From Dictyostelium discoideum (taxonomy: Eukaryota), in assembly GCA_000004695.1 (NCBI GenBank), contig CM000155.2:2272001-2336000 (forward strand): DNA of 64,000 nucleotides, read 5' to 3'. Each line of letters opens with the position of its first letter. Position 1 is the stretch's first letter. The translations under genes and the position numbers were made by a program. This document shows, one piece after another, positions 14,339 to 33,430 of the stretch. The notes beneath the pieces are model-generated. The model was not told the DNA's origin. It did no database searches and saw only the letters and a list, made by a program, of their open reading frames with translations.

Positions 14339-16074
14339 TTAAAAATTTGAAAAATTTAAATTTTTATTATTATTAAAATCATCTATTATTAAAGGTTTAT
14401 AACCATTAAATGACACACCAAAATTTTTTAAAAATTTATATTGAATGTCGGATAACTTAAATTGGTTTTCAATAACTGTTTGCTGATTTGATTTGTTTCT
14501 TTTTATATTTATTAAATATTCTAATAGAGAGTCATTTTGTAATTTTACAGATGATTTTAAAATTCTAATTAAAAGGTCACAAAATTCATTTTTAGATAAT
14601 AAAATAAAATCAATTAGTTTGATAGTGAAATAGTGATTATTGGATTGAATGAAAATTTCAAATATATATTCAATTTCCTTTTCACAGAAAAAACCAATTG
14701 AAATTAAATATAAAATAACCCTAGGGTTTGAAGCCAATAAATCATGTAATAATCTTTTCTTAAATGAGTTGCTTTTGTTTAAAACCAATTGTTTCTTTAA
14801 ATACTGATCAATAAAAAAGACCCAATTATTATTTATACAAAGAAATAAAATATTTAAAAATTCATTCTTTTCAAATTGAATTTGATTTTCAGAGTTTGAA
14901 ATTTCGGTTGACCACTTTTTTAAAATAAAAGGTAAAAGTTTTTTATTTGATTGATCATTACTTTCAAATAAATGATGATTTAAAGTTTTTGTTTTATATT
15001 CGAAGGTTTTTTTTGAAATGTAATCATTAAAGTATGGAAGACTATTCAATTTATTAAAAAATTTACATCTTGATACTCTGCAAAGAGGAGGTGATTGTAA
15101 TAATCTTTCAAACATATTTTCAAATAGATTTTTATTATCTTGAATCTTTAATGTTTTAACAAAATTCAAATTCAAGTTATTGAATAGTAATTGTTGATCA
15201 TATTTAATTGAGGATTCTAATAAAGCAAAATAATTATATACACTATTAATAATTTGAGATTGATTCTCGATTGAGGTTAATTGAATTTTAAAGTGATCAA
15301 ACCAATAATTTTCAAATAAATAATTTAAAATTTCTTGATGATTTTCATTTGCTACAGATATTAATAAAGTTAGCGGTGGTTTATAATATTTAGTATATAG
15401 TTTTACTAAAGGTAAATCATTTTGAATGGAAAATGTACGATTTGAATCAAAAATCTTTTGAAGATTTATACCATTTTTTAAAAAGAATTGAAACTTTTCA
15501 ACTGTTAAATATTCAGATGATGATAAACCTCTCCATATTGTCGTTGGTGCTTTCTTTGAAAGTTCAATTGCATTTGATAAATCATTATTTATACATGTTG
15601 GTAAAAATTTAATATTATTTATTAATGAATCGAATGCACGAGTTTTTAAAATGTATTGAGCAATACTTGGATCTTTAACTATAATTGAACTGGTATAGGA
15701 ATTCTTTAATTTCTTTATAAAATCATCAGGTAAAGAAATCATAACTTTTAAAAGTACCAACATTGATGATTTCATTAATGAACATGGTCTAATTTTAAAT
15801 TGATCAATGGTTTTAATTGAAACTTTTGTATCATAAACTTTTATTTTCGAATCAAAAGGATCCATATTTGAATTTAATTTTTTCTTAAAAATTTCTAAAA
15901 CCATTTTAAACATAAATTCATCACTGTATTCTATAATCTTTTCTAAAAATGTTAAATTTGAAGAATTTGATTCAAATAAACCAATTTTATTCAATACCAT
16001 AGGTCCAAACTCTTTTGATAATTTCTTTTCAACAATTTTTTCTAAAACTTTAAAAATTGATTCTTCAAAATTTA

Positions 16075-16129
<55 letters not shown>

Positions 16130-16645
16130 GTTATTAGCTTGAGGAGTTATTAAATCTAATAAAATTTTAAATCTTCTTTTAGAATCACAACTTGATGAGA
16201 ATGAAAATTTTTCTAAATTTTTACAATCATAAATTGTTGGATTAAATATATCTACAATAAATTTCAATGTTTCATAATTTTCTATTGAAACTAATAATGA
16301 ATCTAAAGAATTTGAAACTTTTTTAAATTGTTGTTCAATTTCAAATTGAAAAATCTTATAAATCTTGTAAAATATTTGAAAATCTAATTCCTTCCATTTA
16401 AATAATTTATATAAACAATAATAATTAAAATTTATAAAATGTTTATAATTATCTTTTTGAGAATTTTCAAATAAATAATTTAATTTCTCTATTAATAAAA
16501 CTTCATTCTTGGTTTTAATTATTAATGAAAGTGGAAATTCATAATAATTATATGTTAGATAATATTGATTACTAATTTTTAAAAATTGAAAAATTTTTTT
16601 CCTTAAAAATGAATTTCTATAAACTTTAAAAAATAAATCTCCCAT
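14339..16645 (-). CDS. Paralog family member A (uncharacterised Dictyostelium-specific family)
   Basis: 768-aa ORF. N-terminal MGDLFFKVYRNSFLRKKIFQFL...YNYYEFPLSLIIKTKNEVLLIEKLNY, a motif shared with six downstream paralogs. Asn19 tract. Confidence 0.7.
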
Positions 16646-16715
16646 TTTAAATTTGTACTGTGCTTATTTAAAAAAAAAAAAAAAAAAGAAAAAATCAAAA
16701 AAAAAAAAAAAAAAA

Positions 16716-16748
<33 letters not shown>

Positions 16749-17489
16749 TAAAGATTTAATTATTTTATAAATAGAAAATTTAAAAAAAATTATTGTCCTT
16801 TTATTTTAAATTAAATATTAAATAAATAAAAATAAACATATACATATATATTAATTTTTGGTGATTATAAATTCAATCTTTAGCTTTATTACAAAAAAAA
16901 GTGGGTGAAAATAAGAAATTGTTTTTTTTTTATTTTTATTTTTTTTTCATTTTTTTTTTTATTTTTTTTTTAAAAAAGATAAAACATTGTTATTAACTTT
17001 TTTTTTATATCTTAAAATCATTAAGAGTTTCTAATTAAAAAAAAAAAAAAAAATTAAAAATAGAAATAAATAATAATAACTATTTTTTGAAATTATCAAT
17101 CTATTTTTATCTTTTTTTTTTTCAATTATCTAATTTGGGATATCTAAATTAAATTCCAAGATTAAAATAGTGTGTTATTGTTGGTTGATTCAATACCCCA
17201 AAAAAAATAAAAAAAAAAATAATAAAAAATCAGGTTCACTTAGAGACACTAGTTCTCATTAGTCGGGTCATTTTTTTTTTTTATTTCTTAAATTAATTGT
17301 GTTCAATTTTTTTTTTTTTTTTTTTTTTTTTAATAACCTTCTATATTTTGTTAATAAACTTTGAAATGTTCAACTATTTTTTTTTAAAAGTTTAAACTCT
17401 TTTTAATACAAATAAATAATAAAGGGTTATTTTCAAAATAAATTAAAATTAATAATTATTTTTTTTTTTTTTTTTTTTGAAGATAAATT

Positions 17490-19847
17490 TTATTTAAAAG
17501 TTAAAGAATAATTAAAAATAGTATTTAAATTTTTAATGAAAAAATTATAATGTTGAGAAGAAGTTTTTTTTGATAAATAATTAATTTTTGAATTATTAAT
17601 TGATAAATGACCAATTAAAAATAATTTAATTAAAATTTTATGTAAAATAAAACTATTACCTAGTTTTCTTTCTAATGAAATTGAACAAAATGATAAATCA
17701 TTTAAAAAACCACCATTATAAACAGAAATGAACAAAAGTTCAACATTTAAAGAAAAACCAAAAGATTTAATTTGAGAATTTGTAAAGATAATCGAATTTA
17801 AAATTGCAAAACGAATAATATTTAATGCAAAGGTTTTTGATCTCCATTTCGAAAGTCCTTTTAAAATATTTTCATTTGAAATTAATTGAGCAATTACAAA
17901 TTTAGAATTTTTTTTATTTATTTTACTAATTGAACTATAGATTTGACCTAAAATTTCGAAAACCATATTAGATACGATATCAGTATACACCTTTCTCAAT
18001 TGAGAATTGTAAAGCCACTTTCTTGCAGTTCCTGGGTTACTTTTTAACCATGACACAAACTCTGGATTAAATTTAAAATTTAGTATACTAATATCATAGA
18101 TTTTATTATCATCTTCTTGATTAAAAAAAAAAGAAGACCTTTCATCAAGTTCTACATAATGTTGTAAAATTATTGGTGAAATGTAATTAAAAAGGTCAAT
18201 TAAATTACATTGAATTGAATGAATTAACAATAAAATAAGATTTGTTTTAAAAAGTGATGGAGATGATCCATCACCAAAGCATATATTACCATGGTTGATA
18301 ATATTCTCTAAAAAACATTTATGTAATTCTTTATTACTACTACTACTGCCAGATTCAAATGCTTTTTTAATTTGATTATAATTATACTTTTTTGGAAACC
18401 TTTTAAAATAAGATTTTAATGCATTCACATCTTGATTCTTGATAATAACATTAAGAATTTCTAATGGATTATAAAAAAATGGTATTTCTTTTTCAAAAAG
18501 ATTTGATTCTATCATTTCTTTATTAACTGATTGTAAAAAGTAGTAATCAATATATTTGTGTTGTGGGAGTGGTAAAGTCTCAAACTTGACCTGTTCTCTT
18601 TTTCCAATTTTTCTAAGTTGGTAATCACAAACCCAAGAGATTTTAACATTATATAAGTTTTTTAATTCTTCAAAATAATTATCATTTAACCATATTGCTA
18701 CATCTGAATCATATATTAATCTTTGTTTGTGAATTGGTTCTTTATCTCTTTGAAAATATTTCCAGTAAAAATTTTTACATAAAACTTTTACAATATCTAG
18801 GTTAAAACTTTCAAAAATAAATCCAATTGGTATATCGAATGATTCCAATATCGATCTCTCTATACTAATTCCTAATAATTTCACAATTTCATCATTATTT
18901 TCTAATAGTGCTAAAGGTAACTTTGTTGGTGGTAGTGGTGTATATTTATATTTTTCTAATAATAATTTAAGCATAAATTGATCTTGGTATTTACTAATTG
19001 CACTAAATAAATTATTTATTGCTGAATAGAATGGATCATACAATATTTGAAATTTATTTGGGAAATATTCTAAAATTAGTGAACCAAATAGTTTTGATTG
19101 ATTTGTTTTAATTATATACTCTAAATAATGTACCAATTCTCTGAATGATACATCAATTTTTAATTCACTAAGGATGTATCTAAAAATTTCTTTTTTCTTT
19201 TTAATTTCATCATCATCATCATCATCATCACCATTTACTGTTCTTTTAAATTTATCAAACATTTTAAATATTGGTTCTATATCTATGGTTTCAATTTCGA
19301 GATACTTATTATTTATCAAGTATTTAAGTTTCTTTAAATCACAAATACCAATTATAATTGAATTATAATCAATTCTAACCAATCGAGCTATATATGGACT
19401 ATTATAATTTAATTTATTATGATATTTAATTTCCTTATTGGTTTTTTTAATTTGTTTATTAATTTCTGTTATTTCATTTTTAAATGTTTCAAAAACAATT
19501 TCAAATAATTCAAATGGTAATTCCCTCCATTTATATAATCTTTTTAAACAATATTCACTAAAATTTAAAAAATGTTTACTTTCTATTATTGATTTATTAT
19601 TATTATTATTATTATTATTTTTAAAATATTTATTATAATTATTTATTTTTTCAATTAATAATGGTTGATTTTTTGTTTTTAATATTAATTCAAGTGGGAA
19701 ATCATAATAGTTATATCCAATATATGTTTGTTCTTTATTGTGTTGTGTAATATATGAATAGATTTTATTGATTAAATATTTATTTTTGAATACTTTATAA
19801 AATAAAAAATCCATTTTCATGTTTGGGTTGGGGGAGAAAATGATCAT
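17490..19847 (-). CDS. Paralog family member B
   Basis: 785-aa ORF. The track ORF starts at 19847 (MIIFSPNPNMKMDF...). The family-consistent start is the Met at 19814 (MDFLFYKVFKNKYLINKIYSYI...YNYYDFPLELILKTKNQPLLIEKINNY). Confidence 0.7.
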   Translation of the reverse strand: MIIFSPNPNMKMDFLFYKVFKNKYLINKIYSYITQHNKEQTYIGYNYYDFPLELILKTKNQPLLIEKINNYNKYFKNNNNNNNNKSIIESKHFLNFSEYCLKRLYKWRELPFELFEIVFETFKNEITEINKQIKKTNKEIKYHNKLNYNSPYIARLVRIDYNSIIIGICDLKKLKYLINNKYLEIETIDIEPIFKMFDKFKRTVNGDDDDDDDEIKKKKEIFRYILSELKIDVSFRELVHYLEYIIKTNQSKLFGSLILEYFPNKFQILYDPFYSAINNLFSAISKYQDQFMLKLLLEKYKYTPLPPTKLPLALLENNDEIVKLLGISIERSILESFDIPIGFIFESFNLDIVKVLCKNFYWKYFQRDKEPIHKQRLIYDSDVAIWLNDNYFEELKNLYNVKISWVCDYQLRKIGKREQVKFETLPLPQHKYIDYYFLQSVNKEMIESNLFEKEIPFFYNPLEILNVIIKNQDVNALKSYFKRFPKKYNYNQIKKAFESGSSSSNKELHKCFLENIINHGNICFGDGSSPSLFKTNLILLLIHSIQCNLIDLFNYISPIILQHYVELDERSSFFFNQEDDNKIYDISILNFKFNPEFVSWLKSNPGTARKWLYNSQLRKVYTDIVSNMVFEILGQIYSSISKINKKNSKFVIAQLISNENILKGLSKWRSKTFALNIIRFAILNSIIFTNSQIKSFGFSLNVELLFISVYNGGFLNDLSFCSISLERKLGNSFILHKILIKLFLIGHLSINNSKINYLSKKTSSQHYNFFIKNLNTIFNYSLTFK
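19818..19845. repeat. Inverted-repeat arm 1 (CATGTTTGGGTTGGGGGAGAAAATGATC)
   Basis: Its reverse complement lies at 20190-20216. Arm 1 overlaps the 5' end of family gene B. Confidence 0.85.
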
Positions 19848-20189
19848 TTTTATTTTTTTTTTTTTTTTTTTATTTTTTTTTTTTTTTTATTAATTTATTA
19901 ATAAAAATTTTTTTTTTTTAACTTATTTTTTATTTTTTATTTTTTTATTTTTTTTTTTTTTTTTGTGATTTAATTTTATTTTTAGTATGAATTTAGTGGA
20001 GAGAACTCAAAATACACACGATATAATATATAAAAATTAATGTAATCATTCTGTTTATTTTTTTTGTTTTTTTTTTTTTATTTTTAGAATTCAATTATTT
20101 ATCATTCTTTTTTTTATGTAATTGTTTTTTTTTATTTTGAAAAGAGAGGGAATATATTTTATATCAATGATAAAAAAAAAAAAAAAAAA

Positions 20190-20216
20190 GATCATTTTCT
20201 CCCCCAACCCAAACAT
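20190..20216. repeat. Inverted-repeat arm 2 (GATCATTTTCTCCCCCAACCCAAACAT)
   Basis: Perfect 27-bp reverse complement of 19819-19845, flanked by complementary A/T homopolymers. Sits just 3' of the stop of family gene C. Confidence 0.85.
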
Positions 20217-20228
20217 TTTTTTTTTTAT

Positions 20229-20631
20229 TTAAAATTTTAATTTATTAAAATTTTTATTAAAAATAGTAATATTGTTATAACTAGCATTATGTATCATTGA
20301 AAAAGAAAATAATGCATTGATTTCTGGAAATTTATTTGTTGATGATATTGTTCTTAATAAACAATTATCTACATTTTTAAATGACATATATCCATTAAAA
20401 AACATTTTAATTAAAATTTTATGAAATACAAATCCTTTACCATTATTTTTATCCAAAAATGGTCTACAACATAATATTTCATTAATACTATTTTCATAAA
20501 ATGATTTTACCAAATTTTCATCATCGAAACCAAATGATTTGAATTGATTATCTGAATCTAAAACAATACCATTAATAACAGCAAAACGAATGATATTTAA
20601 AGGAATATTTTTCAAATCCTTTTTATTTTCA

Positions 20632-20669
<38 letters not shown>

Positions 20670-20673
20670 TTTA

Positions 20674-20768
<95 letters not shown>

Positions 20769-22702
20769 TTTATGATTATTATTATTAATATTTTCATACA
20801 TAATTTGATTTGATGTTAATTCTCTAATGATAAACTTTGAATCTGATTTTAAAGTTTTATTAATAATTTTATAATCAACTTTTTCATTTAAAATTTGAAA
20901 GACAGTGTGTGATAATGCATCAAAATAAAATGATTTTAAATGTGAATTGAAAAACCATTTTCTTGAGATATTATTATTTTTAGCACTTTTTAAACATTTA
21001 ATAAATTGGTGATTATATATAAAATCTTTTAAAGTAATCTTTTCATTATTCTTTATTGCTAATGAAATAAAATTAAAAAGTTCAAAAGAACCATAATCAA
21101 CACATGAAGCCAAAAATGAAATAATTGAATTCATATTATGATTTTTTGGAAAATTACAATTAAATATATTTTCTATAAAACAATTAAATAATTGTTTATT
21201 TCCACTATAAAATGCACTATTAACTTGATCGAAATTGTAATAATTTGGAAAAATATTAAAATAAGCAATCAATACTTCAACATTTTCTTCCTTTATTATA
21301 ATATCAACTAATGATGTTAAAAATGAATATTTATTATGAAGTTGTGCTAAAATTGAATATTCATTATAATTATTATTATTATTATTATTATGCTGTTGTA
21401 CTAAAAATTGTTCAGACTCTATCATTTCTTTATTGATAAAATCAAAATAACAATTTGCAATATATTGAAAAGTTTCAAATTTAACCTGTTCCCTTTTATT
21501 ATTGATTCTTAAATGTAAATCACATAGACATGAGATTTTAATTTCGTTTTTCTTTTTTTTTAATAATAAAAAATAATTATCACTTAAAAACAATGCAATT
21601 TTAGGGTCATATATTATTTGAATAGTTGAATTTCTATAAAATCTATCTGTTGTTTCATTGAATAAACTTGATTTTAATGCTTCACAAAGTACCTTTACAA
21701 TTTCTAAATCAAAATTGTTTAAAATAAATTCAAGTGGAAAATTCATTGCTTCTAAAGTTGATTTACTTATTCTAATACCTAACAATGTAAAAATTTCTGA
21801 TTCAGTTGTTGGTGTTAGTGTTGGTGTTGCTGTTGGTGGTGCAAGTGTTGTTGTTGTTGTTGTTTTTGTTGATGATGATGGTGGTGCAGGTGTTGTTGGT
21901 GCAAGTGTTGTTAGTGTTGGTGTTGGTGGTGGGGGTGGTGGTGGTGTTGGTGTTGTTGGTGGCGCAAGTGTTGTTAGTGTTAGTGTTGGTGTTGGTGTTG
22001 GTGTTGGTGTTGGTGTTGGTGTTGGTGTTGGTGGTGTTGGTGGTGTTGGTGGTGGTGTATATTTATATTTTTCTAATAATAATTTAAATATATATTGGTC
22101 TTTGTATTTAGAAATTATTTGAAATACATTGGTTAATTGATTATGTATAATTGGTAATTCTTTTGGGAATAAATCTATAATTTGTTTTCCAAAAATTTTC
22201 GATTGATCTTTAATCATAATTTCACATAAATATGTTGTTAATTGAGTAAATGATAAATCAATTTTAGATTCGTTTATTAAATATTGAAATATTTCTTTTA
22301 ATTTTATTTCTTCATCATGATGATCATGATTCACTTGGATTCTATAAATCATTTTTCTTTTTCTTTTTAATTTTCTTGAATGTATTAAACTAAAAACTGA
22401 ATTGATATTGATTGACTCAGTTTCGAGTAATTGATTATTTATTATATATTTGAGTTTATCTAAATCTCCATTAATGATTAGATAACTATGGTATAGTATT
22501 TTTTCTTTTCCATATTTATTTATTTTAATTTTTCCAATTATTTTTTCAATTTCTTTTTTAAATGTTTGAAAAATAAGTTCAAATAATTCTAATGATAATT
22601 CACTCCATTTATATAATAGTTTTAAACATTGTTCATTAAATGTTAAAAAATGTTTACTATTTAATATTGATATTTCTGAATATTTATTATTTTTATTATT
22701 AC

Positions 22703-22760
<58 letters not shown>

Positions 22761-22955
22761 TATAAAATATTTAATATAATTATTTAATTTTTCAATTAAT
22801 AATGGTTGATTCTTTGTTTTTAAAACAAGTTCTAATGGGAAATCATAATAGCTGTATCTGATTAATCTTTGTTCTTTATTATACTCTGAAATATATGAAT
22901 AGATTTTTTTCTTTAAATAAATATTTTTAAAAACCTGACTGAATAATAAATCCAT
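20229..22955 (-). CDS. Paralog family member C (expanded Pro/Thr linker and poly-Asn)
   Basis: 908-aa ORF. About 90% identical to members D and E outside the low-complexity inserts. PTPTPT...TTLAPP linker of about 130 aa. N55-like tract (ATT)n at 20640-20790. Confidence 0.75.
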
Positions 22956-23095
22956 TATATATATATAAAATAATATGTTGCTAGTTAAAAAAAAAAAAAA
23001 AAGAAAAAGAAAAATGAAAAATGAAAAAAAAAGTTTTTATAAATATATTTTTTTTTTTTTTTTTGATAAATTCTCAAAAAAAAAAAAAAACAAAA

Positions 23096-23103
23096 TCCCA
23101 CAA
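23096..23103 (+). promoter_or_regulatory. DUSE-like box (TCCCACAA) upstream of a Class I RNA gene
   Basis: Matches the Dictyostelium upstream sequence element consensus [AT]CCCA[CT]AA. About 75 nt upstream of the GTTGAC stem start. Confidence 0.55.
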
Positions 23104-23178
23104 CCAAAAATAATAAAATATGTATCACGATATATATTAATAATTATAAAAATAATTAAATGTGCAAAAACACAAATA

Positions 23179-23242
23179 AGTTGACCTTACAGCAATCTTA
23201 ACAATTTTATCACATTATAAAAAAAAACCTCAGTCAACTGTA
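23179..23242 (+). ncRNA. Class I small ncRNA gene (copy 1)
   Basis: aGTTGAC-CCTTACAGCAA-tcttaacaattttatcacattataaaaaaaaacctca-GTCAACt. The 5' and 3' ends form a 7-bp stem (AGTTGAC/GTCAACT), with the conserved 11-nt Class I motif CCTTACAGCAA directly after the 5' stem. Length about 60 nt. Confidence 0.65.
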
Positions 23243-23608
23243 TAAAGTGATAAATTTTTTTAAGTTCCTAACTTCCGAATATTAAGAGAGGTCCGAGGTT
23301 CGAAACTCCGTATAGTAACCAATAAAAGTGACCCAAATGGGGCTCAGCTTAGTTGTAGGCCCACTAAAGCTAAAAACTACAAAAAACAATTTGAATCACC
23401 CAAAAACCAAAAACCAATCAAAAAAAAAAAAAAAAAGATTTAAAAAAAGAATGGAAAAAAAGTTATACATAACTTTTTTTTATTTAAAATTTTAATTTAT
23501 TAAAATTTTCATTAAAAATAGAAATATTATTATAACTAGAATTACGTATCATTGAAAAAGAAAATAAGGCATTGATTTCTGGAAATTTATTTGTTGATGA
23601 TAATGTTC

Positions 23609-25951
23609 TTAATGAACGATTTCCTTTATCTTTAAATGACATATATCCATTAAAAACATTTTAATTAAAATTTTATGAAATACAAATCCTTTACCATTAT
23701 TTTTATCCAATAATTGTTTACTACATAATATTTCATCAATACTATTTTCATATAACGATTTTACTAAATCTTCATCATCGAAACCAAATGATTTGAATTG
23801 GTTATCTGAATCTAAAACAATACCATTAATAACAGCAAAACGAATGATATTTAAAGGAATATTTTTCAAATCCTTTATATTTTCATTATTATTATTAATA
23901 TTATTATCATTATTATTACAATACATAATTTGGTTTGATATTAATTCTCCAATGATAAACTTTGAATCTGATTTTAAAGCTTTACGAATAATTCCATAAT
24001 CAACTTTTTTATTTAAAATTTGAAAGACTGTATGTGATAATGCATCAGAATAAATTGATTTTAAATGTGAATTGATAAACCATTTTCTTGAGATATTATT
24101 ATTATTTTTTGCACTTTTTAAACATTTAATAAATCGATAATTATTAATAAAATCATTTAAAGTAATCTTTTCATTATTCTTAATTGTTAATGAAATAAAA
24201 TTAAAAAGTTTAAAAGAACCATAATCGATACATGAAGCCAAAAATGAAATAATTGAAATTATATTATAATTGTATGGAAAATTACCATTAAATATATTTT
24301 CTATAAAACAATTAAATAATTGTTTATTTCCACTATAAAATGCACTATTAACTTGATCGAAATTGTAATAATTTGGAAAAATACTAAAATGAGCAATCAA
24401 TACTTCAACATTTTCTTCCTTTATTATAATATCAACTAATGATGTTAAAAATGGATATTTATTAAAATTAATTTGCTGTTGCGCTAATAATGAATTATTA
24501 TAATAATTATTAATATTATTATTATTTTGTCGTGCTAAAAATTGTTCAGACTCTATCATTTCTTTATTGATAGTATCAAAATAACAATTTAAAATATATT
24601 GAGAAGTTTCAAATTTAACCTGTTCCCTTTTACCAATGATTCTTAATTGTAAATCACATAGCCATGAGATTTTAATTTCATTTTTCTTTTTTTTTAATAA
24701 TAAAAAATAATTATCACTTAAAAACAATGCAATTTTAGGGTCATATATTATATGATTAGTTGGGCATGTATTGAATTTATCTGTTGTTTCATTGAATAAT
24801 CTTGATTTTAATGCTTCACAAAGTACCTTTACAATTTCTAAATCAAAATTGTTTAAAATAAATTCAAGTGGAAAATTCATTGCTTCTAAAGTTGATTTAC
24901 TTATTCTAATACCTAACAATGTAAAAATTTCTGATTCGGTTGTTGTTGATGTTGCTTTTGTTGCTGTTGTTGGTGGTACAAGTGTTGGTGTTGGTGTTTG
25001 TGTTGGTGTTGGTGTTGGTGTTGGTGGTGTTGGTGGTGTATATTTATATTTATCTAATAATAATTTAAATATATATTGATCTTTAAATTTAGAAATTATA
25101 TCAAATACATTGGTTAATTGCTTATGTATGATTGGTAATTCTTTTGGAAATAATTCTATAATTTGTTTTCCAAATATTTTCGATTGATCTGTAATCATAA
25201 TTTCACATAGATATGTTGTTAATTGAGTAAATGATAAATAAATTTTATATTCATTTATTAAATATTGAAATATTTCTTGTAATTTTATTTCTTCATCATG
25301 ATTCACTTGGATTGTAATTTCAGAACGAATCATTTTTCTTTTTCTTTTTAATTTTCTTGAATGTATTAAACTAAAAACTGAATTGATATTGATTGACTCA
25401 GTTTCGAGTAATTGATTATTTATTATATATTTGAGTTTATCTAAATCTCCATTACTGATTAAATTAATATGGTGTTGTATTTTTTCTTTTCCATCTTTAT
25501 TTATTTTTTTAATTTTTCCAATTATTTCTTCAATTTCTTTTTTAAATGTTTGAAAAATAAGTTCAAATAATTCTAATGATAATTCACCCCATTTATATAA
25601 TAGTTTTAAACATTGTTCATTAAATGTTAAAAAATGTTTACTATTTAATATTGATATTTCTGAATACTGATTATTATCGTTATTATTATTATTTTTATTA
25701 TTACTATTATTATTATTTTTTTTTTTATTACTATTATTTTTATTATTATTATTATTTTTAAAATATTTATTAAAATTATTTAATTTTTCAATTAATAATG
25801 GTTGATTCTTTGTTTTTAAAACGAGTTCTAATGGGAAATCATAATAGTTATATCTGATTAATCTTTGTTCTTTATTATACTCTGAAATATATGAATAGAT
25901 TTTTTTCTTTAAATAAATATTTTTAAAAACCTGACTGAATAATAAATCCAT
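23609..25951 (-). CDS. Paralog family member D (C-terminus altered by a 1-nt deletion)
   Basis: 780-aa ORF. Collinear with C and E up to ...GKGFVFHKILIKMF, then a frame change (ttaaaaacatttt versus E ttaaaaaacaattt) gives a short aberrant tail. DNA homology continues 3' of the new stop. Confidence 0.7.
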   Translation of the reverse strand: MDLLFSQVFKNIYLKKKIYSYISEYNKEQRLIRYNYYDFPLELVLKTKNQPLLIEKLNNFNKYFKNNNNNKNNSNKKKNNNNSNNKNNNNNDNNQYSEISILNSKHFLTFNEQCLKLLYKWGELSLELFELIFQTFKKEIEEIIGKIKKINKDGKEKIQHHINLISNGDLDKLKYIINNQLLETESININSVFSLIHSRKLKRKRKMIRSEITIQVNHDEEIKLQEIFQYLINEYKIYLSFTQLTTYLCEIMITDQSKIFGKQIIELFPKELPIIHKQLTNVFDIISKFKDQYIFKLLLDKYKYTPPTPPTPTPTPTQTPTPTLVPPTTATKATSTTTESEIFTLLGIRISKSTLEAMNFPLEFILNNFDLEIVKVLCEALKSRLFNETTDKFNTCPTNHIIYDPKIALFLSDNYFLLLKKKKNEIKISWLCDLQLRIIGKREQVKFETSQYILNCYFDTINKEMIESEQFLARQNNNNINNYYNNSLLAQQQINFNKYPFLTSLVDIIIKEENVEVLIAHFSIFPNYYNFDQVNSAFYSGNKQLFNCFIENIFNGNFPYNYNIISIISFLASCIDYGSFKLFNFISLTIKNNEKITLNDFINNYRFIKCLKSAKNNNNISRKWFINSHLKSIYSDALSHTVFQILNKKVDYGIIRKALKSDSKFIIGELISNQIMYCNNNDNNINNNNENIKDLKNIPLNIIRFAVINGIVLDSDNQFKSFGFDDEDLVKSLYENSIDEILCSKQLLDKNNGKGFVFHKILIKMFLMDICHLKIKEIVH

Positions 25952-26088
25952 TTAATATATTAATAGGTTGTTAATCAAAATAAAAGAAAAAAAAAAGAAA
26001 AAGAAAAAAAAAGTTTTTTTAATTTTTTTTTTTTTTTTTTGATAAATTCTCAAAAAAAAAAAAAAAATAAAAAAAAGAGGAAAGAAAA

Positions 26089-26096
26089 TCCCACAA
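26089..26096 (+). promoter_or_regulatory. DUSE-like box (TCCCACAA), copy 2
   Basis: Same spacing (about 75 nt) to the second Class I RNA. Confidence 0.55.
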
Positions 26097-26170
26097 CCAA
26101 AAATTATAAATATTTATCAGGATATATATTAATTATTTTAAAAATAATTAAATGTGCAAAAACACAAATA

Positions 26171-26233
26171 AGTTGACCTTACAGCAATCTTAACAAAATT
26201 TTTTCTGAATAAAAAAACCTAAGTCAACTGTAT
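26171..26233 (+). ncRNA. Class I small ncRNA gene (copy 2)
   Basis: AGTTGAC-CCTTACAGCAA-tcttaacaaaattttttctgaataaaaaaacctaa-GTCAACTgtat. A partial copy of the 3' half (aaaacctaagtcaactgtatc) recurs at 26321-26345. Confidence 0.65.
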
Positions 26234-26559
26234 CTTTTATAAAATTTTTTCTAAAACCTAAGTCTTTTTTTTTTGAATTGGATAACGCAATTATTATTTG
26301 CTTCTCCTTGAGGTTATTCTAAAACCTAAGTCAACTGTATCTTTATAAAATTTTTTAAGGTTCGAACTCCCAAGCTAAAGATGTCCTAGGTTCGAAACTC
26401 GGTCACGAATCAAATTAATGTGACCCAAAATGGGGCTCACCTTGTTGTAGTCTTACTAAAGCTAAAAACAATCAAACCACCCAAAAACAGTAAAAAACTA
26501 AAAACCAACCAACATTCAAATTTAAAAAAGAATGGAAAAAAGTTATATATAAATATATT

Positions 26560-26982
26560 TTAAAATTTTAATTTATTAAAATCTTCATTAAAAATAGTAA
26601 TATTGTTATAATTAGCATTACGTATCATTGAAAAAGAAATTAATGCATTGATTTCTGGAAATTTATTTGTTGATGATAATGTTCTTAATAAACGATTTCC
26701 TTTAACTTTAAATGACATATATCCATTAAAAAACAATTTAATTAAAATTCTATGAAATACAAATCCTCTACCATTATTTTTATCCAATAATGGTCTACTA
26801 CATAATATTTCATTGATACTATTTTCATAAAATGATTTTACCAAATTTTCATCATCGAAACCAAATGATTTGAATTGAATATCTGAATCTAAAACAATAC
26901 CATTAATAACAGCAAAACGAATGATATTTAAAGGAATATTTTTCAAATCCATTTTATTTTCATTATTATTTTCATTATTGTA

Positions 26983-27072
<90 letters not shown>

Positions 27073-29019
27073 ATATATAATTTGGTTTGATGTTAATTCT
27101 CTAATGATAAACTTTGAATCTGATTTTAAAGCTTTATGAGTAATTCTATAATCGACTTTTTTGTTTAAAATTTGAAAGACAGTATGTGATAATGCATCAA
27201 AATAAAATGATTTTAAATGTGAATTGATAAACCATTTTCTTGAGATATTATTATTACTTTTAACACTTTTTAAACATTCAATAAATTGATAATTACTAAT
27301 AAAATATTCTATACTAATATTTTCATTATTCTTTATTGTTAATGAAATAAAATTAAAAAGTTTGAAAGAACCATAATCGATACATGAAGCCAAAAATGAA
27401 ATAATTGAAAATATATTATAATTGTATGGAAAATTACCATTAAATATATTTTCTATAAAACAATTAAATAATTGTTTATTTCCACTATAAAATGCATTAT
27501 TAACTTGATTGAAATTGTAATAATTTGGAAAAATATTAAAATAAGCAATCAATGCTCCAACATCTTCTTCCATTACTATAATATCAACAAATGATGTTAA
27601 AAATGAATAATTATTATTATAATAATTATTATGCTGTTGTGCTAAAAATTGTTCAGACTCTATCATTTCTTTATTGATAAAATCAAAATAACAATTTGCA
27701 ATATATTGAGAAGTTTCAAATTTAACCTGTTCCCTTTTACCAACGATTCTTAATCGTAAATCACATAGCCATGAGATTTTAATTTCGTTTTTCTTTTTTT
27801 TTAATAATAAAAAATAATTATCACTTAAAAACAATGCAATTTTAGGGTCATATATTATTTGAATAGTTGAATTTGTATTAAATTTATCTGTTGTTTCATT
27901 GAGTAATCTTGATTTTAATGCTTCGCAAAGTACCTTTACAATTTCTAAATCAAAATTGTTTAAAATAAATTCAAGTGGGAAATTCATTGCTTCTAAAGTT
28001 GATTTACTTATTCTAATACCTAACAATGTAAAAATTTCTGATTCGGTTGTTGTTGGTGTTGGTGTTGGTGTTGGTGTTGGTTTTTTTGTTGGTGTTTGTG
28101 GTGGTACAAGTGTTGGTGTTGGTGTTGGTGGTGGTGTTGGTGGTGTTGGTGGTGGTGTATATTTATATTTATCTAATAATAATTTAAATATAAATTGGTC
28201 TTTGTATTTAGAAATTATTTGAAATACATTGGTTAATTGATTATGTATAATTGGTAATTCTTTTGGAAATAATTCTATAATTTGTTTTCCAAATATTTTC
28301 GATTGATCTTTAATCATAATTTCACATAAATATGTTGTTAATTGAGTGAATGATAAATCAATTTTTGATTCTTTTATTAAATATTGAAATATTTCTTGTA
28401 ATTTTATTTCTTCATCATGATGATCATGATTCACTTGGATTGTAATTTCAGAACGAATCATTTTTCTTTTTCTTTTTAATTTTCTTGAATGTATTAAACT
28501 AAAAACTGAATTGAAGTTGATTGATTCAGTTTCGAGTAATTGATTATCTATTATATATTTGAGTTTATCTAAATCTCCATTACTGATTAAATTAATATGG
28601 TGTTGTATTTTTTCTTTTCTATATTTATTTATTTTTTTAATTTTTCCAATTAATTTCTCAATTTCTTTTTTAAATGTTTGAAAAATAAGTTCAAATAATT
28701 CTAATGGTAATTCACTCCATTTATATAATAGTTTTAAACATTGTTCATTAAATGTTAAAAAATGTTTACTATTTAATATTGATATTTCTGAATACTGATT
28801 ATTATTATTATTAATATTATTATTTTTAAAATATTTATTATAATTATTTAATTTTTCAATTAATAATGGTTGATTCTTTGTTTTTAAAACGAGTTCTAAT
28901 GGGAAATCATAATAGTTATATCTGATAGATCTCTGTTCTTTATTATACTCTGAAATATATGAATAGATTTTTTTCTTTAAATAAATATTTTTAAAAACCT
29001 GACTGAATAATAAATCCAT
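26560..29019 (-). CDS. Paralog family member E
   Basis: 819-aa ORF with an intact family C-terminus (...NNITIFNEDFNKLKF*). Confidence 0.75.
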
Positions 29020-29087
29020 ATTATATATAAAAAAAAAAAAGAAAAAGAAGTTTTTTTTTTTTTTACAAATTGTTGTAGGGAATTTTC

Positions 29088-29157
29088 AATAAAATTTCAC
29101 TACAGTAGCGTAGTGAATTTTATTATTTAATTTCACTACAGTAGCGTAGTGAAAAAA
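29088..29157 (+). repeat. Two direct copies of a 23-bp hairpin-capable motif (ATTTCACTACAGTAGCGTAGTGAA), spaced 40 bp apart
   Basis: Each unit contains the 6-bp inverted repeat CACTAC...GTAGTG around AGTAGC. Lies next to the retroelement remnant. Confidence 0.7.
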
Positions 29158-29580
29158 AAAAATCACTGACCCTAAATTTTTTTTTTTTTCAAAAAACAAA
29201 TAAAGTTTATTAAATTATTATCTTTTATTTGAATATTAGCTCTATTTAAGGTTTTTTAATTTTTTTTTTTTAATTTAATTTTTTTTTTTTTTAATTTAAT
29301 TTTTTTTTTTTTTTTTGCGCCAAAATTTTTTTTTTTTTTCCCCAACAAAACTTTTTTTTTTTTTTTTTTTTTTTTTATTTTCATTTTCCCAAAATGAAAC
29401 AAGATAAATTATTTAAAATTTATTGAAGATAATAATTTTGAAAATACTAAACATAAAAATTATAAATTTTTACATGATGAGTAAATATTTTTCCTTACCA
29501 TAACACAATCATTTTTTAAATTCTGACCAATAAAAAACAGAAACAGAAAAGAAAAATTATTTAGAATTGAAAAAAAAGTC

Positions 29581-30424
29581 ATGAATTGTGGCGGAGATAG
29601 AAATATATCAAAAGAAGTGTGTTTAGAAGTAATTAATGATTATAGAATGGTATCACTCTGGGAAGAAATGCATAAAGGTCATATAGGAAGAGATGCAACC
29701 TATGGGAACTACAAGACTAAATATTATAATATGGGATTGTATTCTTTTGTATCTGATGCAGTAGATACGTGTGACATTTGCCAACGAAATAGAATAAAAG
29801 GTTTGGTATCAATCATTTTTTATATGATGTTTTGTAACTTTTATATTAAAACTCTGTGAAAGTATGGCACTGCGATAATGGACGTGAATTTAAAAACAAA
29901 GTCCAAAAAGAATTCCTAAAACTTTTTCCAGGCTCCAAGTCAGCACATGGAGCTCCTCGTACACCAACAACTCAAGGTATGGTAGAAAGATTGAATCGAA
30001 CTATCAAGGAGAGGATCTCAAAATTAAAACAACAAGAGTATGATATTGTGAACAATATAAATTATCGATATGTTTATTAATTAATCATTTATAAATAAAT
30101 TTTAGTTTTCTTGATGGTACTTCTAGGTCTCTTTCTGAACTATTAAAACAAGCTTTGTATGATTACAATAATACAAAAACAAGAACAATTAAAATGACAC
30201 CATCTCAAGCTGTTGGTATTGTTCCTTTGTTTATTAATGTTCAATCAGAACAAGACTCTCAATCAATTGGTGTTTCAGATGTTTCAAAAGAAGAAAGAAC
30301 AGCTATTATTCTTGAAAATCTCACAAGTTACCAAAATCAATGGAATTCAAAACCACCAAAGGGATTGAAAGTTGGTGATACTGTACTCTTTCTAGAAATT
30401 AAAAAAAATAATGTAAGTAATTAA
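29581..30424 (+). mobile_element. Degenerate LTR-retrotransposon (Ty3/gypsy-type) integrase remnant
   Basis: Three broken ORFs. (1) HHCC zinc finger: H-KGH-IGRDATYGNYKTKYYNMGLYSFVSDAVDTCDICQ. (2) C-terminal half of the rve core: WHCDNGREFKN...GAPRTPTTQGMVERLNRTIKERI. (3) C-terminal SH3-like region (GLKVGDTVLF). The DD part of the DDE triad is missing and the reading frames are broken. Confidence 0.7.
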
Positions 30425-30479
30425 AACATAAAGATTAATAATATATGAAACAGTAATAATTATCAAATTTTATATTTAA

Positions 30480-30698
30480 TTCTAATAGATAATATTGATT
30501 TTAGGTATAATAATAAGGGGGTTCTGGAAGACACTATACTGCTCTATAAACTTGAGTTTTTGGAAGACGGACTAATCGCCTGAATACAAGGTCATACTCT
30601 GTGTTGGNGAAGGGAACAAACCATGGATGTTTATAACATGCGAACTTGATATTGTTAGAGCATTGTCCTCATACATGAAGATACNGACTCTTTTACTT
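30480..30698 (+). other. GC-richer non-coding block adjoining the integrase remnant (possible LTR or UTR fragment), running into the assembly gap
   Basis: Composition differs from the AT-rich spacer. Bounded by the N-run. Confidence 0.25.
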
Positions 30699-30802
30699 CT
30701 GGNNNNNNNNNNNNNNNNNNNNNNNNNNNNNNNNNNNNNNNNNNNNNNNNNNNNNNNNNNNNNNNNNNNNNNNNNNNNNNNNNNNNNNNNNNNNNNNNNN
30801 NN
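30699..30802. other. Assembly gap (N run)
   Basis: 104 N. Confidence 1.
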
Positions 30803-31127
30803 TATTAAAAGTTTCAAAATCTAATTCCTTCCAAACTAGTAATGATTTTAAACATTCTTTATTAAAATCTAAATAATATTTGGTAATGATACTACTACTG
30901 CTAATGACTTCATCATCATTTGATTCACCTTTGATTATATATTTATTATAAAATTTAATTTTCTCTAATAGTAATATTTGATTTCTACTCTTTATTACCA
31001 TCTCTAATGGGAATTCGTAAAAATTATATGTTAAATATAATAAACTCTCATTATATTGTCTAATAAATTTAAATATAATATTATTTAAATAATTATTTTT
31101 AAAAACACTAAAAAATAATGTATCCAT
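30803..31127 (-). CDS. Paralog family member F, N-terminal fragment; the 3' part is lost to the gap and retroelement
   Basis: MDTLFFSVFKNNYLNNIIFKFIRQYNESLLYLTYNFYEFPLEMVIKSRNQILLLEKIKFYNKY... The likely start Met is at 31127-31125. The ORF runs into the N gap. Confidence 0.55.
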
Positions 31128-31390
31128 TGAAAAATGTAAAAAAAAATGCAAAAAATAAAATAATGATGTGTTTTTTCTCCCAAAAATAATAATAATAAAA
31201 AAAAAAAAATTTAAAAATCTTGCAAATATCCAATTAAAAAAAAAAAAAAATTTTTTTTTTATTTTAAAATCTATACTTTTTTAGATAAATAAAGAGTACT
31301 TATAATAATAATACTCTTTATTCTTCAAAATAAAAAAAATGAACGATAAATAATTTAATTGTAAAAATAAACTTTTTGGTTGAAAAAAAA

Positions 31391-33155
31391 TTATTTAAAT
31401 AAAAATGGTTTAAAAACTTTTATTCTTTTTAATCTATCAATATAAATAATTCTATCTTGGTAATTTAATTTTGAAATAACAGAAATTAAATATGATTGAT
31501 ATGTTAAATAAATTCGATAATTAATTTCTTGACTATTATTTTTGAAGAAATTTGAATTATTAGCAACTTCTAATAAATAATTAAATGGATAATCATTTTC
31601 TAAAAGTGATGAAAATAGTAATAATAAATGTAATTGTTTTTTATAGATAACCATTGATGTAAACTGTTTATTATTATTATATTTTGAAAGTAATTTTGGA
31701 ATTATTAAATTGAAAATATTAAATTCATCAATTTCATTACATTCACTAAAATATTTGATAACGTTCATGTCTAGCTCTAATAATAAAGTTTGATAAATCT
31801 CATCAGAGTATTGATTAATTAATAATTCCAATGATTGATAATCGTTTAAAGCAAGTAGACATTTTTTAATTGATAATTTTGAAAAGAATATATATCCATC
31901 AAATTTTATTAAAAACTTTAATTGATTAATTCCAATATATTCACAATCTTTTGAAAAATCCCACCTCAACTGTTCATTTGAAAAAAGTTGGATATTTTGA
32001 TTTAATATTTTATTATTTGATATACTTGAATATGTTAAATAAAATGGTGGATTTTTAACACTACTACCACTATCACTATCACCACTTCCACTACTATTAC
32101 TATTACTATTATTATCAATTTTATTTTGATCAATAGAGTCATATATCATTAAATTTAAATGATTTTTTAATAGATATAGTGATATATATGGGTCAGAGAT
32201 TATGATTCTATTATTTTTTGATGAACTATAATTATAAATGATATTTGGGAATGGTAATTGAAATTCTCTATTGTCTTGATGATCTTTTATAACTAATTCG
32301 TCAAAAAATCCATAAAATAATGAATTTGATTTATAGATTAATAAATAATCAATATCTAATAAATCTATAACCATTTTATTAAATTTAACTTGATATTCAG
32401 TTTTTTCAAATAGATATCTTGGTGGTGGCGGTGATGATGACGATGATGATGATGATGATAATGATGATGATGATGATGATGATAGGTCAATATTATATAG
32501 TTGAACAATTTTTAATATTAATAATTTTATCATTTCTCTATCACCTTTTTCCAATGATATTGATGTTAAATTATATATTTGTTCTATTTTATTTTGATAA
32601 CCACCTATAATTGAAGGTTTCTCTAATTTTTCAATGAAAAATTTACCGTATCGATTTGTTGAATTTTCTTTTACTATCTTTATTAAAATTGTACAAATTA
32701 TACGATTTGTTATTAAAGGTAGTTTGGTAATTGATAATGAAGATAGAAAATCGAAAAATTCAATAACTTGTTCCATTGGGTATGTTGGATTTGAAAATAT
32801 ATCTATCGAATAATTAGCTAAATAATTTGAAAGCATTGATTTAAATACTCGATTTCTTTCTTCTTCTATCTTTAGTGGTGGTGGTGGTGATTGTAGTAAT
32901 GATGATTGTAGATATGGGAGTGGGTATGGTAGTGAATTTAATAAAAATAATTTCAATATTCCAATATTTTCATTTTCAATTAAATCTTGAAAATATTTTG
33001 GATTATCATACATTTCTAGTGACTGAATTTCATTTTCAAATGTTTTAAAAATTAATTTAACAATTTCTGAATCAACTCTCTTCCATTTAAATAAATATCT
33101 TAAACAATCTTTATCTATTTTTAATAAATTTTCATTTTCTATTATTGTTATTTTA

Positions 33156-33238
<83 letters not shown>

Positions 33239-33430
33239 TGTATTATTATGTAATTTTATTTTTTCAATTAATAGGTGTTGATTTTTAGTTTTAATTATTG
33301 ATAATAATGGAATTTGATAATAGTTGTAAGTTTTTGTATATAAAAGTGATTTATTTATTTGTTTTATTTTTAAAAAAATTAATGACCTTAAATATATATT
33401 CTTAAAAACTTTAAAAAAAATATCATCCAT
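31391..33430 (-). CDS. Paralog family member G (divergent)
   Basis: 679-aa ORF. MDDIFFKVFKNIYLRSLIFLKIKQI...YNYYQIPLLSIIKTKNQHLLIEKIKLHNN. Asn29 tract, a Ser-rich run, PPPP. Confidence 0.7.

Follow-up and report, generated by a model that had tools for sequence, protein, structure and literature searches.

An array of Spd family genes on chromosome 6 of Dictyostelium discoideum, its members inside an assembly gap and a predicted ankyrin-like N-terminal region

The Spd family and the chromosome 6 cluster

Nineteen genes of Dictyostelium discoideum whose products share an N-terminal "novel undescribed domain" have been named SpdA to SpdS (Dias et al. 2016, PLoS One 11:e0160376, PMC4981364). One product, SpdA (DDB_G0287845), is described as a regulator of cell spreading and phagocytosis that has no transmembrane domain: in spdA knockout cells, phagocytosis falls to 51% and spreading to 83% of the wild-type level, loss of only the last 41 residues acts in the opposite direction, and the effects of both alleles depend on cell density, being seen at high density (PMC4981364). 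Here we analyzed a 64,000-nucleotide stretch of chromosome 6 (contig CM000155.2, positions 2,272,001 to 2,336,000; hereafter the window), in which seven related open reading frames (ORFs), A to G, lie between positions 14,339 and 33,430. We show that they form a chromosome 6 cluster of this dictyostelid-specific family, made up of SpdG, SpdL, SpdN, SpdQ, SpdO, an unannotated gene F, and SpdR.

The array belongs to D. discoideum strain AX4, and a chromosome 6 coordinate equals the window position plus 2,272,000 (S1 Table, PMC4981364). Chromosomal coordinates and sizes of six array genes agree with that table, which holds A, B, C, D, E, and G under the names and lengths listed below; F is not in it. 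ORF B is a 100% match to DDB_G0292950 of AX4, and gene D is an exact match to DDB_G0292934 (P0003, XP_629452.1). Against the first ~120 residues of SpdA, which define the family, all seven ORFs give significant matches, with BLASTP E values of 1e-13 for A, 2e-9 for B, 4e-10 for C, 3e-9 for D, 8e-9 for E, 8e-19 for F, and 4e-9 for G, and hhalign comparison of array subgroups with SpdA gave E values of 6e-12 to 2e-7. A hidden Markov model (HMM) of the N-terminal module, built from 24 family N-termini, retrieved the seven ORFs at E 1e-22 to 6e-27, the runner-up among the 452 ORFs of the window reaching 0.046, which bears out the common module that an earlier note on this DNA had described in seven minus-strand ORFs. 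The coordinates in that note also hold, apart from the edge of F and the start of B, which it had placed at 19847. No further copies of the family were found elsewhere in the window. The features are as follows.

14339-16645, minus strand: gene A, SpdG (DDB_G0292932), 768 aa; chromosome 6 2286339-2288645, as in S1 Table of PMC4981364
17490-19814, minus strand: gene B, SpdL (DDB_G0292950), 774 aa; annotated start ATG at 19814, the ORF being open to 19847
20229-22955, minus strand: gene C, SpdN (DDB_G0292952), 908 aa; first of three tandem units
23609-25951, minus strand: gene D, SpdQ (DDB_G0292934), 780 aa; second of three tandem units, frameshifted
26560-29019, minus strand: gene E, SpdO (DDB_G0292936), 819 aa; third of three tandem units
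20219-29064, minus strand: the three duplication units C, D, and E, with a period of ~3.0-3.1 kb by self-blastn
29470-30702, plus strand: fragment of a long terminal repeat (LTR) retrotransposon of Ty3/gypsy type in the spacer upstream of E, truncated by the gap; left boundary approximate
30703-30802, no strand: 100-N assembly gap of the AX4 reference; 14,178 bp take its place in the AX4-like assembly GCA_054883475.1, in which the gap is closed
30804-31127, minus strand: gene F, unannotated Spd gene, first 108 codons; full length 863 aa (P0012)
31391-33430, minus strand: gene G, SpdR (DDB_G0292990), 679 aa, with a poly-Ser/Pro linker
8235-10724, plus strand: ankyrin-repeat gene (Pfam Ank), in the flank
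14132-14204, plus strand: tRNA-Gln, anticodon UUG, 135 bp past the stop codon of gene A

Word-indexed protein searches were swamped by poly-Asn and other low-complexity words, returning 1-7 proteins, or a single one for the N-terminal module alone, and an exhaustive HMM search was required. When the family profile was run in this way against 1.84 billion representative proteins, 26 proteins matched at E<=0.001, SpdA (DDB_G0287845) among them. The source was looked up for 20 of the 26, and it was always Dictyostelium or Polysphondylium (D. discoideum, D. cf. discoideum, D. citrinum, D. dimigraforme, D. firmibasis, D. purpureum, and Polysphondylium violaceum), NCBI labeling every one of these relatives "hypothetical." Judged from these matches, the Spd family is restricted to dictyostelids. 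The earlier note had spoken of an orphan, lineage-specific family, and while the dictyostelid-only distribution and the absence of a sequence domain agree with this, the family already had a name (PMC4981364). The D. purpureum protein DICPUDRAFT_153981 (P0021, 1100 aa) gives two separate matches to the family profile, apparently representing two Spd N-terminal modules, which reflects either the fusion of a tandem pair or a gene model that merges two genes.

We regard this as an ordinary, already-known array, to which our additions are modest and incremental. Tandem lineage-specific expansions are common in Dictyostelium, and the array itself is of little weight: six of its genes are annotated and the family was named in 2016, F and three genes hidden in the assembly gap being absent from the published table. 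What is added here is the prediction of an ankyrin-like fold, the contents of the reference gap together with their link to orphan transcripts, and a split selective regime.

Tandem growth and the assembly gap

The similarity of the head-to-tail units C, D, and E continues through their spacers, with blastn identities of 85-93%, for example between 21969-23261 and 24950-26250 and between 23224-23918 and 26321-26995. This demonstrates that the array expanded as whole units of gene plus spacer were duplicated in tandem, as had been proposed from the sequence, and a retrotransposon was inserted in one of the spacers. The proposed figure of ~90% DNA identity, spacers included, lies within this range, but "near-identical" is too strong, as the proteins are only 77-84% identical when indels are counted; in gap-free codons outside low-complexity sequence, identity is 94% at the DNA level and 88% at the protein level. 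The copies differ in the lengths of their poly-Asn tracts, one of which reaches 56 aa in gene C, and of their Pro/Thr (PT) linkers, which measure 86 aa in C (aa 299-384, nt 21804-22061), 34 aa in D, and 38 aa in E, a narrower range than the ~30 to ~130 aa first given. These length changes most likely arose by slippage. To call them the main difference between the copies overlooks ~12% amino acid substitutions, which are concentrated in the C-terminal half.

In gene D (SpdQ), 1 bp has been lost from a T6 run within window positions 23640-23660. The reading frame is thereby shifted over the last ~54 codons, whose ancestral version, stop codon included, is conserved out of frame at 23487-23648. 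An identical 780-aa product is encoded in a second AX4-like assembly. Because SpdA without its last 41 residues was reported to be a gain-of-function form (PMC4981364), the truncation of SpdQ might, by analogy, be non-neutral.

Beyond genes B to E, the similarity is confined to the N-terminal region. By BLAST, A and G have ~110-130 N-terminal residues in common with the other array members, and profile-profile comparison aligns residues 1-376 of the B-E group with residues 1-332 of A, the same group aligning with G over ~290-307 residues and with full-length F over ~370-396. At that level, A, F, and G show no detectable similarity to B-E in their C-terminal halves. The blocks FETxQYI, ISWLCD, NIIRFA, and KSFGF had likewise been attributed to all seven ORFs, yet they occur only in B-E and not in A, F, or G. 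Gene G has a poly-Ser/Pro linker at the position of the PT linker of B-E, and gene A has no PT tract.

The truncation of F, which had been taken for a gene fragment, is due to the 100-N gap in the reference and not to biology. Its 108 residues are 100% identical to residues 1-108 of P0012, an 863-aa protein encoded in a different D. discoideum assembly, GCA_054883475.1; the window lacks the rest of this protein. In that assembly, loci L004 and L005, which match the window at 99.4-99.6% identity on either side of the gap, bridge it with 14,178 bp; in the reference, the gap is at chromosome 6 ~2,302,703-2,302,802. Besides the body of F, this span holds two Spd genes, one of 792 aa and one, inverted, of 785 aa, together with a fourth copy of the C/D/E type (816 aa, 84-85% identical to E) and the rest of the Ty3/gypsy-type retrotransposon. 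With F and three further genes within the gap, the complete array is therefore one of ten family genes over ~33 kb, and workers on Dictyostelium may find it helpful that the bodies of four Spd genes, in 14.2 kb, are concealed by this gap in the AX4 reference.

Three AX4 transcripts, comp5569_c2, comp4660_c0, and comp4660_c4, were published in 2017 as novel and not in the reference (PMC5282741). The PCR primers for these three transcripts have their sites within the 792-aa and 785-aa genes, and none in the window; these two hidden Spd genes are therefore transcribed, and the orphan transcripts are explained.

The retrotransposon fragment carries a Pfam Integrase_H2C2 match (E 6e-9) on the ORF at 29581-29859 and integrase-core-like sequence, and it is inserted in the spacer that separates E from the fourth, hidden copy of the C/D/E type. 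A 23-nt sequence with a hairpin (TTTCACTACAGTAGCGTAGTGAA) occurs between this fragment and the start of E in two exact plus-strand copies, 29095-29117 and 29131-29153, 36 bp apart, where none is expected by chance; the two repeats may be part of the retrotransposon end. A second 100-N assembly gap is found at 48575-48674, within a stretch of 14-17% G+C (~20% for the window) and upstream of an SNF2-type helicase gene. The genes on the flanks are ordinary chromosomal ones, and those downstream of the array encode an ABC-G transporter, a large membrane protein, and an SNF2-type remodeller (PMC3848188).

Selection and copy turnover

Ratios of nonsynonymous to synonymous divergence (dN/dS, or omega) were estimated with bootstrap confidence intervals (CI); for comparison, the syntenic array was taken from GCA_054859385.1, an assembly of a diverged strain of D. 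discoideum (L001 and L002; dS ~0.07-0.10). Between AX4 genes and their orthologues in this strain, omega is 0.11 for A (CI 0.05-0.23), 0.36 for B, and 0.38 for G, with all intervals below 1, constraint being strongest on gene A. Pairs of C, D, and E give omega 0.63-0.77 over their whole length, 0.26-0.35 for N-terminal halves, with intervals below 1, and a near-neutral 0.8-1.3 for C-terminal halves, with intervals spanning 1. Purifying selection on the N-terminal region is thus evident. The three copies are accordingly not mere pseudogenes, and selection on their C-terminal halves is either relaxed or diversifying.

These ratios also bear on the possibility that the recent copies, namely C, D, E, and the one concealed by the gap, or even most of the array, are functionally redundant and drifting to pseudogenes, in which case unequal crossing-over would have left the array as a by-product that serves no particular function. 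The values for whole C/D/E pairs and for their C-terminal halves agree with such decay, as do the frameshift in D, a broken copy in the other strain, the retrotransposon within the array, and the reported poor expression of SpdL (reads per kilobase per million, RPKM<1; PMC5282741). However, ORFs of 780-908 codons have been retained despite a genome of 20% G+C, the constraint on the N-terminal halves extends to the youngest copies, A, B, and G are clearly constrained, and two of the hidden genes are transcribed. We consider such decay to be unlikely.

The duplication that produced C, D, and E had been called very recent, which is true only in relative terms: dS among the three is 0.07-0.11, about the same as between the two D. 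discoideum strains. Both of the other assemblies contain four C/D/E-type copies each, with 78-86% protein identity to the AX4 copies, and in the diverged strain, where one copy is broken into pieces, these have no clear one-to-one orthology. The similarity of the two dS values and the lack of clear orthology point to a history of birth-and-death turnover or gene conversion, not of very recent duplication. It is also clear that the copy number of the array differs between strains. In the comparison of GCA_054859385.1 with AX4, dS is 0.07-0.10 in array genes and divergence is 5-13% in spacers, and 300 bp of an adjacent ABC-transporter exon are 99.7% identical; the unusual divergence belongs either to this strain or to the array locus.

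Predicted fold, candidate roles, and known systems

Sequence searches assigned no domain to the array genes, in agreement with the earlier note, which had recognized no catalytic motif. Pfam was run on the products of A, B, C, D, E, and G and on 18 relatives; for the six array proteins, no match had an E below 0.07 or came close to a gathering score, and a PDB sequence profile search with the array proteins gave no match; neither a catalytic nor any other Pfam domain is recognizable by sequence. The AlphaFold2 (AF2) model of B is almost entirely helical, and its N-terminal 300 aa, which gave a better model on their own, with a predicted local distance difference test (pLDDT) score of 74 and a predicted template modeling (pTM) score of 0.67, have a predicted fold that matches ankyrin-repeat domains almost exclusively. 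Among the relatives, the Polysphondylium protein P0025 just passes the Pfam thresholds for Ank_2 (27.7 vs 27.3 bits), Ank_3, and Ank_4, P0020 remains sub-threshold for Pfam Ank, and two Polysphondylium relatives bear the UniRef name "Ankyrin repeat-containing protein." From the model, we predict a highly diverged solenoid of ankyrin-repeat-like type for the "Spd domain," the conserved region of ~300 aa at the N-terminus. At the sequence level, the array proteins pass none of the ankyrin tests, including the gathering scores of Pfam Ank and Ank_2-5, and we therefore do not file their genes as ankyrin family members; the N-terminal region is ankyrin-repeat-like in predicted fold only.

The ankyrin gene at 8235-10724, 4 kb from the array, encodes 829 aa with an unambiguous Pfam Ank_4 match (E 2.5e-33). 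Its residues 51-85 (DKLFFKIIRNKYLLKTIGYWI...; LFFKIxRNKYL) resemble the Spd N-terminal motif with E 3.5e-5 in hhalign and only 0.046 in HMMER. Since the first is significant but the second marginal, we treat the likeness as a lead only, suggested by sequence comparison.

The array proteins show no signal-peptide-like N-terminus, their first 20 residues being Lys/Arg-rich with a mean hydropathy <0.9, and no convincing transmembrane segment, the maximal 19-aa hydropathy mean being <=1.63 in windows that hold charged or polar residues. We infer from this and from the model that they would be soluble, almost entirely alpha-helical proteins of two parts. The PT-rich tracts could instead be read as those of secreted or cell-surface mucin-like glycoproteins serving adhesion or self-recognition, like the polymorphic surface families of Dictyostelium, since PT linkers of 34-86 aa vary among copies, copy number and sequence vary between strains, and the SpdA phenotypes concern adhesion and spreading (PMC4981364). 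This idea is highly improbable, and we reject it on the absence of both a signal peptide and a transmembrane segment, the latter being lacking also in SpdA (PMC4981364); moreover, A has no PT tract and G has a Ser/Pro tract in its place.

Taking these results jointly, the explanation that we favor, with somewhat better than even confidence, is a Spd cluster that grew in tandem and encodes proteins with an ankyrin-like solenoid and, by analogy with SpdA, an adaptor role. Each protein would consist of an N-terminal ankyrin-like solenoid, a flexible PT- or Ser-rich linker, and a fast-evolving helical C-terminal half. Such proteins may be non-enzymatic, protein-binding adaptors in a pathway that tunes actin-dependent spreading and phagocytosis to cell density, as suggested by SpdA analogy only; the conserved solenoid would contact one common partner, and the variable C-terminal half could give each paralogue a different specificity. 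If the Spd domain is indeed an ankyrin-repeat solenoid, as predicted, this offers a protein-protein adaptor hypothesis for the effect of SpdA on spreading and phagocytosis.

Several observations weigh against this explanation. Ank hits at E<=1 are absent from A, B, C, D, E, and G in Pfam and from ten relatives, internal repeats are not significant in self-hhalign (the best, A 34-68 vs 420-453, has E 0.005), and a profile of the ten ankyrin repeats of the neighboring gene reaches only E 0.007-0.04 against the array proteins. Transfer of function from SpdA is weak because only ~60-115 N-terminal residues are shared with it at the BLAST level, and no knockouts or cell assays for array genes were found in the searched literature. 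SpdL is reported to be poorly expressed (PMC5282741), and the C-terminal omega of 0.8-1.3 in C/D/E and the frameshift in D fit decay as well as diversification.

A constrained N-terminus joined to a fast-evolving C-terminus in a tandemly expanded gene family would also suit substrate receptors of cullin-type ubiquitin ligases, in which the N-terminal module would be an F-box-like or other E3-ligase docking element and the C-terminal half would bind substrates. Matches to F-box, SOCS-box, and BTB are absent even at E<=10, both for 25 N-terminal modules and for full proteins, and the F-box reading was dropped accordingly. Matches to ligase receptors arise via generic ankyrin folds, and the SpdA phenotypes give no pointer to proteolysis, so we hold a role as ligase receptors to be very unlikely. 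A bolder version of the adaptor explanation, which we consider a long shot, is that the array encodes copy-number-polymorphic, fast-diversifying, cryptic ankyrin-repeat adaptors, whose N-terminal solenoid would plug into one signaling or actin-regulatory partner and whose C-terminal halves would diversify toward different targets, such as bacterial prey or secreted density factors. If this were true, a locus of diversifying adaptors would be an amoebal counterpart of expanded innate-recognition adaptor families.

In conclusion, the system closest to the array is SpdA. All seven ORFs carry the N-terminal region that defines its family, and the array proteins likewise have neither a transmembrane segment nor a characterized sequence domain. 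SpdA differs in that it is encoded on chromosome 5, shares no more than its N-terminal residues with the array genes in BLAST, and is the sole family member studied experimentally (PMC4981364). The tandem array, gene F, and the gap-hidden genes are not discussed by Dias et al. 2016 (PMC4981364). With ankyrin-repeat proteins, the array would have in common the fold predicted for its N-terminal 300 aa; further points of contact are the similar LFFKIxRNKYL start of the neighboring ankyrin gene and a distant relative, P0025, that passes the Ank thresholds. The F-box and ankyrin-SOCS-box families resemble it in their tandem birth-and-death, their constrained N-terminal and fast C-terminal parts, and a helical-repeat fold, which is predicted here. 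No F-box or SOCS-box was found in the array proteins, which have no known ubiquitin-ligase link, and the likeness to these families is one of evolutionary pattern only.

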